Positions 16,314-30,000 of a DNA stretch of 64,000 nt are shown here, one piece after another; the first letter of the stretch is position 1, and every line of letters begins with the position of its first letter. This DNA comes from Minisyncoccota bacterium (GTDB lineage: Bacteria > Patescibacteriota > Minisyncoccia > Phycocordibacterales > UBA9973), in the NCBI GenBank assembly GCA_041665885.1, contig JBAYHY010000001.1:5715-69714 (forward strand), read 5' to 3'. The position numbers were made by a program, and so were the translations under genes. The notes beneath the pieces were generated by a model that had not been told where the DNA came from, ran no database searches, and saw only the letters and a list, made by a program, of their open reading frames with translations.

Positions 16314-16390
16314 GTTTAATGACGTATTGCCTCTTGTTTTTATTACAAAAAATAACTATTAAATCGGAACAAAATTCTTTTTTCTACGTG

Positions 16391-16462
16391 TGACCCTACC
16401 GGGAATCGAACCCGAATTTTATCCTTGAGAAGGATACGTCCTAACCGTTAGACGATAGGGCC
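16391..16462 (-). tRNA. tRNA-Glu (anticodon CUC)
   Basis: The reverse complement folds as a cloverleaf: GGCCCUA acceptor, anticodon loop UUCUCAA, T-loop UUCGAUU. Confidence 0.85.
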
Positions 16463-16800: not shown

Positions 16801-16843
16801 AGCTAAGCAAGAACCGTTCTTGCTTAGCTGTTCTTGCTTAGCT
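16801..16843. repeat. Near-perfect 14-bp-arm palindrome (AGCTAAGCAAGAAC-c-GTTCTTGCTTAGCT) with a tandem duplication of the right arm, followed by a T-rich tract
   Basis: The palindrome is seen directly. The second copy of GTTCTTGCTTAGCT lies at 16830-16843. Confidence 0.6.
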
Positions 16844-24818: not shown

Positions 24819-25693
24819 GATTTTTCTATAATTCTCAACTTTGCGCTCCTGGACCTTGGATTATTTTTTATTTCTGACTCTTCCGCTTTTATTGGCTTTT
24901 TATTTATTAAAAATGCTAATCCCATTTTTTCTTTCTCTTTAAAAAATCTCTTGGTGATTCTGTCTTCCAAACTATGAAAAGAAATCACCGTCATTCTTCC
25001 TCCCCCCTTCAGTCTTTCAAATCCTTTTTCTAAACCCTTTTGAAGAACTCCCAACTCATCATTCACCGCGATTCGTAATGCTTGAAAGGTCCTTGTGGCA
25101 AAATGAATTCTCCCCCTCCTATATACTCCTGGCACTGCCCCCTCAATTATTTTTACTAAATCCTGGGTAGTATTTATCTTTGCGTTTTCCCTGGCTATTA
25201 CAATCGCTCGGGCTATTCTTCTTGAATATTTTTCTTCTCCATAACCATAAATGATATCCGCTAAATTTTTCTCCTCCCAAGTATTCACGATATCTTCCGC
25301 AGTGACATCTTCCGAAGAAGGATTTTCCTTCATGGTCATGAGTAGTGGTTCATCCTTCATAAAAGAAAATCCTCGTCCGGAATTCTCCAACTGGTCTGAA
25401 CTCAAACCAAGGTCAAAGATTATTCCATCCACTTTTTCATTACCCAAAACTTTGTCCAAATCGGAAAAATTTTCGTTGAAAAATGAAATCCTTATATCGT
25501 TTTGTTTCCACACGTTCTTGTCTTGATCTAAGGCAATGATTTTTACTTTTGGAAATCTTTTTAGGATTTCAATGCTGTGCCCTCCTCCTCCAAAAGTGCA
25601 GTCGAGAACAACGAGTTTCTCCTTCCCCGCCTTCTGCGGGGCAAGCAAACCTTCTATTGTTTCATTTAAAAGAACTGTCTTGTGAATACTCAT
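24815..25693 (-). CDS. rsmH: 16S rRNA (cytosine1402-N4)-methyltransferase RsmH (MraW)
   Basis: The HKTVLLNE start, DCTFGGGGHS SAM motif and GLSSDQL motif are present. Confidence 0.9.
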   Translation of the reverse strand: MSIHKTVLLNETIEGLLAPQKAGKEKLVVLDCTFGGGGHSIEILKRFPKVKIIALDQDKNVWKQNDIRISFFNENFSDLDKVLGNEKVDGIIFDLGLSSDQLENSGRGFSFMKDEPLLMTMKENPSSEDVTAEDIVNTWEEKNLADIIYGYGEEKYSRRIARAIVIARENAKINTTQDLVKIIEGAVPGVYRRGRIHFATRTFQALRIAVNDELGVLQKGLEKGFERLKGGGRMTVISFHSLEDRITKRFFKEKEKMGLAFLINKKPIKAEESEIKNNPRSRSAKLRIIEKS

Positions 25694-26118
25694 AACCTTT
25701 CTGCTAATTCTCCCGCCTGCTTTTCAACCAATTCTTGATTCTTTAACCATTCTTTGTCGTTCCAAATTTCCACCCTATCCTCTACTCCGATAATCGCCGC
25801 CTTGTCTTTGAGTCCAATTCTATCTTTCAAAAAATCAGGGATTAACATTCTGCCAATCGAATCTATTTCTACTTCCGCTGCCCGGCCAAACATGTATCGA
25901 TTGAAACTTCTTTGATCCGCCTTTAGAAAAGACAAGTCATTGTTACTGTTGGAAAGTCTCTCTTTTACCTTCACCCATTCCTTGGAGGTGAAAACGAACA
26001 AACAAGAATCGAGTCCGGGGGTAATAATAATTTTCTTGCCCATTTCTTTTCGGAATTTTACCGGAAGCGAAATGCGATTTTTTTCATCTATGGTGTGTAT
26101 GTATTCGCCGATGAGCAT
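25690..26118 (-). CDS. mraZ: Transcriptional regulator MraZ
   Basis: 142 aa. The duplicated MraZ fold shows DEKNRISLP and IDSIGRMLIP motifs. Confidence 0.9.
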   Translation of the reverse strand: MLIGEYIHTIDEKNRISLPVKFRKEMGKKIIITPGLDSCLFVFTSKEWVKVKERLSNSNNDLSFLKADQRSFNRYMFGRAAEVEIDSIGRMLIPDFLKDRIGLKDKAAIIGVEDRVEIWNDKEWLKNQELVEKQAGELAERL

Positions 26119-26158
26119 TTTAATTACGAAAATTATTAAAATTACTTATAAACAGATT

Positions 26159-26200
26159 TCCCACTTTTTCCCACTTAGTTAACATTATAAACCACTGTTA
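26159..26200 (-). promoter_or_regulatory. Putative MraZ operator: direct GTGGG/GTGGT repeats with ~10-bp periodicity upstream of mraZ
   Basis: The minus strand reads GTGGT-(21)-GTGGGaaaaaGTGGG (complements of 26192-26196, 26171-26175, 26161-26165). This matches the known GTGG[GT] direct-repeat architecture of MraZ boxes. Confidence 0.5.
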
Positions 26201-26300
26201 AAAATAACACCAAGCCAAATATGTGGATAACTCTAGCCCCGCCTAAAATTGACTAATATCATGAAATATGGCATATTCCATATCGGAAAGGAGGCGTTCG

Positions 26301-26498
26301 ATGAAAACACCGATTCTGGCTACCGGATGGGAAGAAGGAAAGGATATACACACGGTGGTAAAACACTTCGGAAACCGTGTCTCGCACCTTGGGACTACCA
26401 ACCACCCCTCCCATTTTGATCTCATGGACTGCACAGATGAGGACATTCAAAAGCTCAAGAAGATCGGCGTCACTGCGACAATAATCAAAGGGAGCTAG
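26301..26498 (+). CDS. Hypothetical small protein
   Basis: 65 aa from the ATG preceded by AGGAGG (MKTPILATGWEEG...). GC is elevated. The track ORF starts earlier, at 26268. Confidence 0.45.
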   Translation: MKTPILATGWEEGKDIHTVVKHFGNRVSHLGTTNHPSHFDLMDCTDEDIQKLKKIGVTATIIKGS

Positions 26499-26500
26499 CT

Positions 26501-26692
26501 GTGATGAAAGTGCGAATCAAAATTACCAGCCCCAAAAACGTAAGCCTCGAAGAACTCAAAACTATCTTCGGAGAATCGGTCTCCCGTGATGAAAAGGAGA
26601 AAGATATCTTCTCGGTTACCGGGAAAAAGATAAAGGAGATCACCGAAGGCTTGCGAGCCGCGGAAGTCGGTTTTCGGATCCTTTACCTGTAG
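26501..26692 (+). CDS. Hypothetical small protein
   Basis: 63 aa with a GTG/ATG start immediately after the previous stop (MKVRIKITSPKNVSLEEL...). GC is elevated. Confidence 0.4.
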   Translation: MMKVRIKITSPKNVSLEELKTIFGESVSRDEKEKDIFSVTGKKIKEITEGLRAAEVGFRILYL

Positions 26693-26713
26693 GGAGAACG
26701 ACGAAACACTGGG

Positions 26714-26890
26714 TTGACTTTCTACGTCAAATTTTGTATACTGTAATTCCTCCTTTCCGTGGATCCCAACCAGCCATTAGGGGATAAAGGTTTTGTCCTT
26801 AAGCCTCTTAGCCCAAAGCGTGGGCAGAGGGACCTCCTCGAAAACTGGTTGGGATCCACACCCACAATTTGTTCTTTGTTTTAATTTCAT
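26714..26890 (+). ncRNA. Candidate sRNA: consensus promoter (TTGACT-17-TATACT) + 15-bp perfect inverted repeat enclosing ~70 nt + U-rich tail; carries two CCUCCU (anti-SD-like) motifs
   Basis: The -35 is at 26714-26719 and the -10 at 26737-26742. The inverted repeat GTGGATCCCAACCAG (26759-26773) pairs with CTGGTTGGGATCCAC (26845-26859). The T-rich tract 26860-26890 follows. The predicted 5' end reads UUCCUCCUUUCC and GGACCUCCUCG is internal. Confidence 0.4.
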
Positions 26891-26910
26891 CAATCCGGCG
26901 CTCAGGCGCC

Positions 26911-26940
26911 ATAAAAATACCCCGGCTTCAATGCTGGGGT
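26911..26940 (-). terminator. Intrinsic terminator of lysS (ACCCCAGC...GCCGGGGT + U-tract on minus strand)
   Basis: The hairpin lies at 26919-26940. On the minus strand it is followed by AUUUUUAU. Confidence 0.6.
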
Positions 26941-26961
26941 ATCGTTCGTTTTGGGAAATTT

Positions 26962-28425
26962 CTATTCTAAATTTTTCGGTCGCATTAAAGGAAAAAGTTG
27001 AGTTTCTCGAACCGGCTTATCTACAAGAAACGCAAAAAATCTTTCTCCGAAGCCGAAACCGAAACAAGGGGGCATTCCATATTCAAGCATCTCCACAAAT
27101 TCCATGTCCGGCATCATTGCCTCCTCATCCCCTTCCATAATTAATTTCTTTTGTACTAGAAAACGCTCTTCCTGATCTAAAGGATTGTTGAGTTCTGCGT
27201 GCGCTCGGCCGATTTCACTTCCGGCGATTATGACTTGGAACATTTCTGTTTTTCTCTCATCATCTTTATTTTCCTTGGAAAGCGGGGCCACGAGCTTCGG
27301 ATGGTTTATGAGATAAACTGGGCCGGAAATATTCTTGCGACAATATTTCCAAAGTGAATCAGTCATCCTTTCTCTATTTTTGCCCTCAAACTCTACGCCT
27401 AATTTTTTAAGCGCCTGCTCCATTTTATCTTCCGAATCCTCGAGCACATCGATACCGGTTTGTTTTTTTACCTCTTCCACATAATCTACATCTTTCCAAT
27501 CATCAGCTAAATCAAACTTATGCCCCCTGGTTTCAAATGCTGTTTTGCCGAAAACATCCTCCGCTATTTTTATGTACAAATCTCTTACCAATTTTTTACC
27601 TTCTTCCGTATTCATGTATGAAGCATAAAATTCCATATTGGTAAATTCTTGGAGGTGTTCTGCACTTCCTCCTTCGTTTCTATACACTCTACCTATCTCA
27701 AAAGTTTTTGGGAATCCTGCCGCCATCAATCTCTTCTGCCACAACTCCCCGACAGAGATTCGAAGAAAAACATTAATATCAAAATCATTATGGTGTGTTT
27801 TAAATGGTCTAGCCTCCGCCCCCCCGGTGGTAATCTCTAAAGTGGGGGTTTCAACTTCCATAAACCCTTTGTCCTTTAAGAAATTTCTGGTTGTCGTCCA
27901 AAATTTCTCTTTTTTCTCAAAAATTTCCTTGAGTTCTGAATCCATCAACATATCCAAATAACGTTTTCGAAACCTTTCCTCTACGTCGACTAACCCATGC
28001 CATTTCTCAGGCAATGGGCGCAGGCTCTTCGCAAGCATACGCCAATCTTTCATTTCTACTGTTCTCTCTCCTCTGTTGGTTTTGAAAAAGGATCCTTGTA
28101 TTTCTACAAAATCCCCAATATCGACGACCTCATTCCAAAAATCGAATTTCTCATCCCCGATGACATCTTTCTTGAGAAGTCCTTGAAAAGTTCCCGTACC
28201 GTCGTTTAAGGTAATAAAAACAATCGCCCCTTGGCCACGGATAGACATGATTCTTCCGGCAACCCATTTTTCTCCTTTATTCTTTTCCAAGTCGTCAAAA
28301 ATACTTACGGCTTCCCGTAAAGTTATTTCCCTTTTTGAATCCGAGGGATATGGATTCATCCCCTTATCTTTTAAGAGTTTGAGTTTTTCTATTCTAGTGT
28401 CCCTAATTTCATCAATTGAAGACAT
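26962..28425 (-). CDS. lysS: Lysine--tRNA ligase (class II)
   Basis: 487 aa with an N-terminal OB anticodon-binding domain and class II motifs (FEIGRVYRNEG, GGSAEH..., GFGFGERF). Confidence 0.9.
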   Translation of the reverse strand: MSSIDEIRDTRIEKLKLLKDKGMNPYPSDSKREITLREAVSIFDDLEKNKGEKWVAGRIMSIRGQGAIVFITLNDGTGTFQGLLKKDVIGDEKFDFWNEVVDIGDFVEIQGSFFKTNRGERTVEMKDWRMLAKSLRPLPEKWHGLVDVEERFRKRYLDMLMDSELKEIFEKKEKFWTTTRNFLKDKGFMEVETPTLEITTGGAEARPFKTHHNDFDINVFLRISVGELWQKRLMAAGFPKTFEIGRVYRNEGGSAEHLQEFTNMEFYASYMNTEEGKKLVRDLYIKIAEDVFGKTAFETRGHKFDLADDWKDVDYVEEVKKQTGIDVLEDSEDKMEQALKKLGVEFEGKNRERMTDSLWKYCRKNISGPVYLINHPKLVAPLSKENKDDERKTEMFQVIIAGSEIGRAHAELNNPLDQEERFLVQKKLIMEGDEEAMMPDMEFVEMLEYGMPPCFGFGFGERFFAFLVDKPVRETQLFPLMRPKNLE

Positions 28426-29085: not shown

Positions 29086-30000
29086 TTAGTAGTAATTTTT
29101 CGATAAATAGGCTCGTCCGGAATCTGCAAAAATCACTACAGCCAAATCATCTTTGGTAAGTTTATCTGCGTAAGTTGAAATTGCGTGAGCGACTGCCCCG
29201 CCACTTGTGCCCAAAAAAAGACCATATTTAGAAGCCATTATTTTGAGCATAGCAAAGCTCTCTGCATCAGAAATTGGAATGAATTCATCAATGACAGATT
29301 CGTTAAGACAGGGAGTTTCAAAATCAATTCCGATACCTTCCATTTTGTATGGTTTCGGATTTCCTTTTGTAGAATGAAAAGAATTATCCACATCGACGGC
29401 GATAACCTTAATTTGAGGATTTTTTTCTTTCAAAAACTTCCCCACTCCGCTAATTGTCCCTCCCGTTCCGGCAGCCGCAAAAAAATGGGTTATCTTTCCC
29501 TTGGTTTGTTCCCAAATCTCTGGCCCCAGGGTCTCATAATATGCTTCCGGGTTAGAAAGGTTAAAATATTGATTCGGCACAAAAGAGTTCGGAATTTCTT
29601 TTTGTAAAACGAATGGTCGCGTGTGATAATTTTCCGGATCATCTAGCGGAACGTTCGGGCAAACAATAGCCTCCGCCCCATAGGCTTTTAGGGTTTTTAT
29701 TTTCTCTTCACTTACTTTATCTGAAACTGTGATAATAACTTTATAACCCTTCACAGCTCCGATCATCGCTATCGCGACACCCTGGTTGCCAGACGAGGCT
29801 TCGATGATGGTTCCACCCGGTTTCAATAATCCATTTCTCTCCGCTTCTTCAATCATAAATAAAGCTGAACGATCCTTTACGCTTCCTCCGGGATTCAAAT
29901 ATTCCAATTTGGCAAAAATCCGACCCGGAGCATCAAAAGGAATTTTTACCAAAGGCGTATTGCCAATAAAATCAAGTACGTTGTTTGTCGATTTTCTCAT
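29086..30000 (-). CDS. cysK: Cysteine synthase / O-acetylserine sulfhydrylase family PLP enzyme
   Basis: 304 aa with the PLP-lysine motif (GGSVKDR), the Gly loop (AAAGTGGTISG), and an SGNQG motif. Confidence 0.75.
   Translation of the reverse strand: MRKSTNNVLDFIGNTPLVKIPFDAPGRIFAKLEYLNPGGSVKDRSALFMIEEAERNGLLKPGGTIIEASSGNQGVAIAMIGAVKGYKVIITVSDKVSEEKIKTLKAYGAEAIVCPNVPLDDPENYHTRPFVLQKEIPNSFVPNQYFNLSNPEAYYETLGPEIWEQTKGKITHFFAAAGTGGTISGVGKFLKEKNPQIKVIAVDVDNSFHSTKGNPKPYKMEGIGIDFETPCLNESVIDEFIPISDAESFAMLKIMASKYGLFLGTSGGAVAHAISTYADKLTKDDLAVVIFADSGRAYLSKNYY

Follow-up and report, generated by a model that had tools for sequence, protein, structure and literature searches.

Does the non-coding DNA between mraZ and lysS of a Minisyncoccota bacterium carry an RNA gene of its own, or does it serve only the small operon in front of it? 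We addressed this question in a stretch of 64,000 nucleotides (GenBank assembly GCA_041665885.1, contig JBAYHY010000001.1, positions 5,715 to 69,714 of the forward strand), referred to below as the window, whose own numbering is used throughout. A preliminary description of positions 26714–26890, made from the sequence alone, had drawn attention to a promoter-like site and a long perfect stem downstream of two small open reading frames (ORF1 and ORF2). It had proposed a small regulatory RNA (sRNA) with anti-Shine-Dalgarno (anti-SD) motifs, an RNA derived from the 3′ untranslated region (3′UTR) of the small-ORF operon, or a palindromic insertion resembling a miniature inverted-repeat transposable element (MITE). 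In our analysis the long hairpin, HP1, is probably the 5′ domain of an independently transcribed, structured sRNA gene at about 26749–26953 on the plus strand (about 205 nt), which would represent an undescribed, lineage-specific family. A shorter RNA of about 125–140 nt may arise, should transcription end in the U-rich tract behind HP1. Judged by its relatives, the putative family ranges over the hypervariable lysS–mraZ island of Nomurabacteria-like Paceibacterota, members of the Candidate Phyla Radiation (CPR).

The lysS–mraZ loci used for comparison were collected via LysS from species-representative genomes and metagenomes. They comprise 160 related loci, designated by L numbers, and 122 distinct lysS–mraZ gaps were examined for a hairpin followed by GTTCTTT under a fixed criterion. 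Comparisons within the genome itself cover the 64 kb of the window only. Two covariance models (CMs) were employed: CM R1, built from HP1 copies, and CM R2, built from the linker, second hairpin (HP2) and terminator. The unit consists of the following parts.

26714–26742, plus strand: predicted sigma-70-type promoter, with -35 TTGACT at 26714–26719, a 17-nt spacer and -10 TATACT at 26737–26742
26749–26758, plus strand: 5′ leader UCCUCCUUUCC, about 10 extra nucleotides of the window copy, with the first CCUCC inside
26759–26859, plus strand: HP1, 101 nt long, with a perfect 15-bp outer stem (26759–26773/26845–26859) and a branched 71-nt interior
26860–26896, plus strand: pyrimidine-rich, mostly single-stranded linker ACCCACAAUUUGUUCUUUGUUUUAAUUUC..., with the family-invariant GUUCUUU at 26871–26877
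26897–26910, plus strand: HP2, a small hairpin GGCGC-UCAG-GCGCC, part of CM R2
26917–26953, plus strand: terminator hairpin AUACCCCGGCUUCAAUGCUGGGGUAU (26917–26942) with a U-rich run, located by the terminator scan, tail CGTTCGTTTT

Among the relatives the same architecture is conserved: promoter, HP1, pyrimidine-rich linker with invariant GUUCUUU, HP2 and Rho-independent terminator, in a single copy per locus and with strand-specific G·U pairs. The anatomy of the unit is solid; its function we infer. Of the earlier proposal of an sRNA regulator, the promoter-driven structured RNA was borne out as the most likely interpretation (conserved promoter, helix and terminator, compensatory evolution, and two copies without an upstream ORF), and the anti-SD part was not.

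Compensatory evolution of HP1

The perfect 15-bp stem is present as described, with GTGGATCCCAACCAG at 26759–26773 and its exact complement at 26845–26859, except that the interior measures 71 nt and not 70. No other spaced inverted repeat of 100% complementarity in the window is as long. The minimum free energy (MFE) of the window element was −53.8 kcal/mol (z = −3.98), and 1 of 200 dinucleotide shuffles was as good.

Homologues of the module occupy the equal position, in the same orientation, in L001, L003 (two in tandem), L005 (two), L006, L083 and L103. The scores with CM R1 ranged from 22 to 81 bits overall, with 57–81 bits for six of the training copies and 28.5 and 22.1 bits, respectively, for L103 and L083, which were not used for training. 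The order of the family module is promoter, long hairpin, variable interior, closing strand, NCNCCAA, UUGUUCUU, small GGCGC-type hairpin and terminator, and in close relatives the base of the long hairpin reads G(U)GGGGAAYCCC. L001 was the one homologous contig found via ORF1 and ORF2, and its gene order is that of the window. It is identical to the window up to TTGACTTTCTACGTC and then carries a different long stem, GGGAACCTCAGCAGG...CCTGACTGAGGTTCCC, around a short interior, after which come the ACCC...TTTGTTCTTT tail, as in the window, and a similar terminator.

The outer helix was evaluated on a 7-copy alignment, in which 98.6% of cells were paired and both sides had changed in 5 of 11 pairs. 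None of 500 shuffles matched its covariation score, and the signal collapsed when the partner strand was slid by one column. In seven of nine copies the plus-strand fold was more stable than the minus-strand fold, by 3.7–10.4 kcal/mol, with G·U pairs on the plus strand; the two strands of the window copy are tied because its stem is perfect. Between the window and L001, third-position identity in lysS, mraZ, greA and rsmH was 0.58–0.66, so that unconstrained DNA is expected to be heavily diverged. The stem sequence of these two copies has drifted at about the neutral rate with its pairing retained. HP1 is thus kept by compensatory substitutions, with its sequence and interior drifting at a roughly neutral rate.

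The length of HP1 varies from 51 to 101 nt across copies, with differences that are not multiples of three; the interior is therefore unconstrained and no reading frame is shared. No conserved ORF was found across the HP1 copies. Two ORFs of 41 and 47 aa inside the hairpin were considered as coding sequences and rejected, since the indels of the relatives are not multiples of three and the frame is unshared. A covarying, conserved structure in non-coding DNA, as expected of an sRNA gene, is what was found. HP1 is not itself recognizable as an intrinsic terminator: the terminator scan called 26917–26942 and not HP1, and a spacer of 8 nt, ACCCACAA, lies between the stem and the U-rich tract, for which reason HP1 and its tail do not form a canonical intrinsic terminator. 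In relatives this spacer measures 0–15 nt.

Transcription signals, heptamer and terminator

Promoters were scored by their match to 12 sigma-70-like consensus positions, with a threshold of at least 9/12 within 60 nt upstream of the stem. The near-consensus TTGACT-17-TATACT noted after the ORF2 stop is indeed there, and with 10/12 it is the best promoter-like site in 25600–27400; the predicted transcription start site (TSS) lies at about 26749. Promoters at or above threshold preceded the stem in six of nine family copies (L006 11; window and L083 10; L003a, L005a and L103b 9), compared with 4.5% of random 60-mers from the window. By prediction, then, the unit has the promoter of its own that an sRNA gene requires. 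L003b has no promoter and lies directly 3′ of L003a, and in L003 and L005 the -35 element overlaps the stop codon of the last ORF. The -10 element ends 6–8 nt before the stem in L083, L003a and L005a, and the predicted 5′ end of the RNA therefore falls on the base that opens the helix. Relatives do not conserve the window leader UCCUCCUUUCC; their predicted TSS lies at the stem base.

Two further features of the promoter region were seen. The -35 element lies inside a small inverted repeat, TTGAC-N7-GTCAA, whose pairing is kept in L001 through G·U pairs. In addition, GGAGAACGA (26694–26702) is predicted to pair with the UUGUUCUUU tail (26869–26877) in a read-through transcript, which would mask the heptamer in the mRNA and not in a promoter-derived RNA.

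The U-rich tail on which the earlier account ended the transcript exists as a tract at 26868–26887, but comparison with relatives indicates that the unit probably runs past 26890 to the terminator. Within this linker lies the invariant heptamer. On the plus strand of the 122 gaps, exact GTTCTTT occurred 40 times versus 9.7 ± 3.2 expected, an enrichment of about 4-fold. The window at large showed no enrichment of GTTCTTT, and it contained no second module of hairpin and GTTCTTT. Such modules were present in 24 of the 122 distinct gaps, with 29 on the plus strand versus 6 on the minus strand. In full-length folds, which consist of HP1, a largely unpaired linker, HP2 and the terminator, GUUCUUU is mostly unpaired, with an unpaired probability of 0.77 in the window copy. 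Some gaps (L066, L082, L120 and L144) have a consensus promoter followed by the heptamer without HP1, and the heptamer is therefore the common denominator of the plus-strand RNAs of the locus. HP1 is its frequent, structurally selected companion.

Downstream of the linker, the HP2 stem GGCGC/GCGCC is replaced by GGCAU/AUGCC in L005b and L103a. The terminator hairpin at 26917–26942 provides the Rho-independent terminator expected of an sRNA gene on the same (plus) strand. It has an A-tract on its 5′ side and a T-tract on its 3′ side, works in both directions and terminates the convergent lysS as well. In L006 the terminator travels with the RNA module, far from lysS. CM R2 matched at 37 places in the 160 loci, 36 of them in RNA orientation (counts that include a few duplicate contigs), and once in the window, at 26881–26955.

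If the unit is transcribed as predicted, HP1 could stabilize the RNA at its 5′ end; several relatives have their predicted TSS on the very base with which the stem begins. The working surface would be made up of the exposed pyrimidine-rich segments, namely the GUUCUUU linker in all members and C/U-rich leaders or loops, and the C/U-rich working segment of the window copy would be CCUCCUUUCC. These segments may base-pair with purine-rich stretches of mRNA, possibly the ribosome-binding site (RBS) of ORF1 in the case of the window copy, or they may bind a protein.

Competing explanations and known elements

Several points weigh against an independent sRNA gene. The -35/-10 spacing of L001 is spoiled by a 5-nt insertion, and both promoter and terminator are predicted, as consensus matches. 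The family alignments are small (7–9 sequences) and their members phylogenetically related. No target emerged: on 74 translation-initiation regions of the window the linker scan performed no better than with shuffled linkers, the start regions of mraZ, lysS and greA lacked AAAGAAC (112–159 loci), and complementarity to the own operon was significant in the window copy only. Finally, distant relatives carry a simpler module of hairpin and GUUCUUU directly after the stop codon of an ORF, with no promoter.

This simpler module was found in L016, L018, L012, L046, L047, L088, L055, L021, L027, L039 and L040. It follows the last small ORF and begins with a perfect, GC-rich hairpin that is unrelated in sequence; a 0–15 nt spacer, GTTCTTT, an A-rich stretch and a terminator complete it. 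Since it stands without a promoter after a stop codon, the ancestral role may have been that of a cis-acting 3′UTR element. The whole element could accordingly be read as a cis-acting 3′-end module of the small-ORF operon and not as a separate gene, with HP1 as an exonuclease barrier or RNase III site and the promoter-like sites incidental; HP1, the U-rich tract and the downstream terminator would then jointly shield the convergent, essential lysS as a double terminator or insulator. We regard this explanation as unlikely. In its favor are the promoterless hairpin, GTTCTTT and terminator right after the stop codon in L016, L018, L012, L046, L088, L055 and others, the closure of two successive L055 operons by the same 120-nt 3′ module, and the 36 nt past the ORF2 stop (26693–26730 region), which are identical in the window and L001 and for which pairing with the GUUCUUU tail is predicted in transcripts that read through. 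However, near-consensus promoters are strongly enriched just 5′ of the stem, and a promoter immediately ahead of a terminator would be pointless. HP1 lies 4–15 nt from the U-rich tract and was not called by the terminator scan. The L006 and L103b copies directly follow the conserved DnaA box, have no plus-strand ORF upstream that they could terminate and possess their own terminator, and a pure 3′UTR or terminator role is therefore hard to reconcile with them. The suggestion of a 3′UTR-derived RNA is partly right, as it fits the promoterless module after the small-ORF stop in distant relatives. In the L055 gap, the nearly identical 3′ modules (hairpin, GTTCTTT, terminator and spacer) lie at about 640–770 and 1850–1980 and end two successive plus-strand operons, resembling a duplicated cassette end.

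Promoter-bearing sRNAs from 3′ regions, the "type I" class of 3′UTR-derived sRNAs, include DapZ and MicL. The unit resembles them in its position downstream of and co-oriented with a protein-coding operon, in its own predicted promoter, in a Rho-independent terminator that would also serve a read-through mRNA, and in a conserved single-stranded stretch between hairpins. It differs from them in showing no sequence or structure homology, in the free-standing copies L006 and L103b, in its CPR host and in being known from predicted signals. As for terminators, the 26917–26942 hairpin is of the textbook bidirectional type between convergent units. HP1 likewise is GC-rich and followed by a U-rich tract, but unlike intrinsic terminators it is 101 nt long, branched, 8 nt away from that tract and immediately preceded by a promoter.

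A second alternative takes the RNA as an anti-SD regulator, in which CCUCC would occlude GGAGG sites such as that of ORF1 or mimic the 3′ end of 16S rRNA. The site concerned is the following.

26284–26294, plus strand: RBS of ORF1, CGGAAAGGAGG, a possible target within the locus for the window-specific leader

Both CCUCC motifs are where the preliminary description placed them, in the leader (26749–26753) and in the interior (26833–26837). They do not define the element: neither occurs in its closest homologue, L001, and most family members lack them. Over 11 nt the leader CCUCCUUUCCG is fully complementary to the ORF1 RBS, a match that 1.5% of shuffles equal or exceed, and exposed CCUCC-like loops occur in L083 (apical, UUCCUCCCCCC), L041 (GUCCUCCGAAG) and L003b (UUCCCCCC). 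Yet L001 shares the ORF1 RBS without having the motifs, the six other copies tested showed no above-chance complementarity to their own operons, and the enrichment of CCUCC across the family was marginal (8 versus 4.0 ± 2.0 in shuffles, p about 0.05). Moreover, the interior CCUCC is paired in the MFE structure, and the invariant motif GUUCUUU is not an anti-SD. Target prediction with RNAduplex on the whole sequence was uninformative. We find the anti-SD explanation unlikely, and anti-SD pairing is therefore plausible as a private feature of the window copy that does not define the family. Nor did the unit behave as the antitoxin of a type I toxin–antitoxin system: the window ORFs are soluble and ferredoxin-like, and six of seven copies lacked above-chance operon complementarity.

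The logic of such pairing is that of RsaE/RoxS of Firmicutes, where the C-rich motifs, located in a loop and in the stretch that joins two stems, pair with SD regions rich in G (PMC6158497). The window unit is like RsaE/RoxS (RF01820) in that its pyrimidine-rich motifs are exposed in a loop and in the unpaired segment that separates two stems, from where they could pair with G-rich SD regions. It differs in having no Rfam match at E ≤ 10, in C-rich parts that are unconserved and an invariant GUUCUUU, and in belonging to another phylum and another genomic context. Tails of the L001 type, CCCCCCUUUGUUCUUU, resemble the RsaE motif, CCCCUUUGUUU.

Searches of curated families were made with Rfam 15, at gathering thresholds and at a permissive E ≤ 10. 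At gathering level only tRNAs were found in the window and nothing in 17 related loci, and the permissive search of the window, L001, L005a and L005b copies gave chance hairpin matches only (e.g., miRNA precursors). ARAGORN reported seven ordinary tRNAs in the window and nothing else. To our knowledge, the regulatory RNAs of the CPR (Patescibacteria) are almost unexplored, and the locus offers a comparatively supported sRNA family that no curated family matches, with a clear architecture, a heptamer that is single-stranded and invariant, and a hairpin that co-varies rapidly. If expressed, its RNAs would count among the first riboregulators open to testing in reduced, episymbiotic bacteria and would give access to the role of the variable small-gene island; if the element is only a 3′-end structure, the finding is an ordinary one.

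A DNA-level role is far less probable than either of the explanations above. Here, the hairpin and heptamer would constitute a recombination or single-stranded DNA (ssDNA) transposition signal for small-gene cassettes, of the attC or IS200/IS605 kind. The gap is hypervariable (138–2600 nt), L055 duplicates its 3′ module, folded ssDNA also tolerates G·T wobbles, and IS200-like Y1 genes with repetitive extragenic palindrome (REP)-like hairpins share the gap in L007, L103, L119 and L120. The presence of Y1 transposases in the gap of other genomes keeps this low-probability cassette hypothesis alive. Against it, the spacing from hairpin to heptamer is variable (0 to 15 nt), a matching left-end structure is absent, the sequences depart from the attC core sites (GTTGGGA in the window, GTTCCCA in L001), neither a recombinase nor a Y1 gene lies in the window gap, the REP hairpins that accompany Y1 differ in sequence, and promoters and terminators mark the element as a transcription unit. 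In a broader form of the same idea, to which we assign an equally slight chance, the lysS–mraZ gap would be a cassette hotspot, where the strand-specific hairpin and heptamer signal the exchange of small-gene or sRNA cassettes (as ssDNA via Y1/HUH, or as RNA), the interior of HP1 is guide-like, and the system resembles an integron without an integrase.

The comparison with REP elements and their RAYT transposases, IS200/IS605 ends and attC sites runs along the same lines. Shared features are a hairpin whose structure is conserved and whose sequence is variable, a short conserved motif near the hairpin foot, a variable gene island, and Y1 transposases in the gap of other genomes. The differences are that the present unit is single-copy and framed by promoter and terminator, that its hairpin–motif spacing is variable, that its sequences depart from the attC core sites and that no cognate recombinase is nearby. 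An attC site as such was considered and rejected: TCCCAAC and GTTGGGA in the window match RYYYAAC and GTTRRRY at 6/7 positions each, the stem is perfect, without bulges, and L001 has GTTCCCA. No intI integrase or attI was found beside the locus, with no recombinase among the surrounding ORFs.

A MITE- or REP-like palindromic insertion without a function of its own, to which the perfect 15-bp inverted repeat in non-coding sequence might point, can be practically discounted: a pattern search with up to 3 mismatches for further copies of the inverted repeat, as had been proposed, and an unfiltered CM search both yielded a single copy in the 64 kb (68.3 bits, the next match being its own reverse strand at 15 bits), no CM match fell outside the lysS–mraZ gap in the 160 related loci, the element is found at a syntenic position in different species and its arms have changed in a compensatory way, and the flanks ...CTTTCC|GTGG and CCAC|ACCCAC show no direct repeat that would constitute a target-site duplication. 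A viral or mobile origin was rejected too, as a stem-pattern scan of IMG/VR returned 10 stem-only chance matches, none with the tail.

Small ORFs and the variable gap

The genes around the locus encode or comprise a penicillin-binding protein, an ftsL-like gene, rsmH, mraZ, lysS, greA and a cysK-like gene, and the order greA–lysS–[gap]–mraZ is conserved among related loci. The sRNA family adjoins the head of the cell-division cluster, with its conserved mraZ promoter, MraZ boxes and DnaA box, and it lies in an island of tiny lineage-specific proteins. The neighbors of the unit are as follows.

25690–26118, minus strand: mraZ
26301–26498, plus strand: ORF1, a small ORF of 65 aa
26504–26692, plus strand: ORF2, a small ORF of 62 aa
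26962–28425, minus strand: lysS, convergent with the RNA unit

ORF1 and ORF2 lie upstream of the RNA, are co-oriented with it and belong to a rare paralogous family. Their elevated GC content, pointed out earlier, is real and modest (0.44–0.49 versus about 0.40). The AlphaFold models of both proteins were confident and showed a generic ferredoxin-like fold of soluble proteins. Each had one homologue and no more among 5.8 billion proteins. Neither matched Pfam or NCBIfam, and scans of metagenome and genome collections gave no match. A profile of the small-ORF family matched 8 clusters, to which an exhaustive HMMER search with the family added repeat-protein noise only. The RNA module was present in 8 of 10 gaps with the small-ORF family versus 16 of 112 gaps without it, an association (Fisher p = 3e-5) that is confounded by phylogeny.

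Between the window (26301–26692) and L001 (4798–5189), third-position identity in ORF1 and ORF2 was 0.80–0.84, as compared with 0.58–0.66 in the flanking housekeeping genes, and non-synonymous differences were about equal in number to synonymous ones. The high conservation of synonymous sites suggests either that the island was exchanged recently between lineages or that the mRNA is under an additional constraint at the nucleotide level.

The lysS–mraZ gap (26119–26961 in the window) is hypervariable, measuring 138 to about 2600 nt in L003–L162. Depending on the species it holds small-ORF operons, transmembrane peptides of 35–45 aa, sRNA-like units, or almost nothing. The L144 gap (about 121–365 and 1408–1640, reverse-complemented; also L091) contains two non-coding units of about 230 nt each, with a consensus promoter of the TTGACA-17-TATAAT type, a terminator and the start GAUCGUUCUUUU, which flank a block of minus-strand genes and have no Rfam match. 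In the L007 gap (about 172–855, reverse-complemented) we found an IS200-like Y1 transposase gene (Pfam Y1_Tnp, E = 3e-5), and Y1 transposase genes also occur in the gaps of L103, L119 and L120. The Y1 gene is flanked by several REP-like hairpins, CCCCGAAGAcc/ggTCTTCGGGG or CCCAAAAGACCGTCTTTTGGG, and in L103 the Y1 insertion is flanked by a duplicated DnaA box and sRNA promoter.

The region upstream of mraZ (26150–26230) contains two MraZ-box-like repeats just downstream of a TATAAT, with TTTCCCAC-N5-CCCAC on the plus strand corresponding to GTGGGAAAAAGTGGGAAA on the mraZ strand, as well as a perfect DnaA box, TGTGGATAA, at 26222–26230. Repeats and box are kept in nearly all 160 related loci, and the DnaA box lies 3–20 nt upstream of the first plus-strand promoter of the gap, be it that of the sRNA or of the small-ORF operon. 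An origin of replication was considered for this box and rejected, as the gap holds one perfect box with no surrounding cluster and no skew switch. The only other perfect DnaA box of the window is at 29384–29392.

A heptamer-like sequence also occurs in the rsmH mRNA (25670–25690, minus strand, codons about 5–10), where the same-sense AGUUCUUUUAAAU, coding TVLLN, resembles the heptamer region of several gap RNAs. The resemblance is probably coincidental and the product of constraint on coding in an AT-rich genome, and we judge the same-sense GTTCTTTTAAAT, coding VLLN, to be coincidental as well. Elsewhere in the window, a 14-bp perfect hairpin, AGCTAAGCAAGAAC/GTTCTTGCTTAGCT, lies at 16801–16843, about 340 nt from tRNA-Glu (16390–16462), and its 3′ arm is tandemly duplicated, which gives two alternative pairings.

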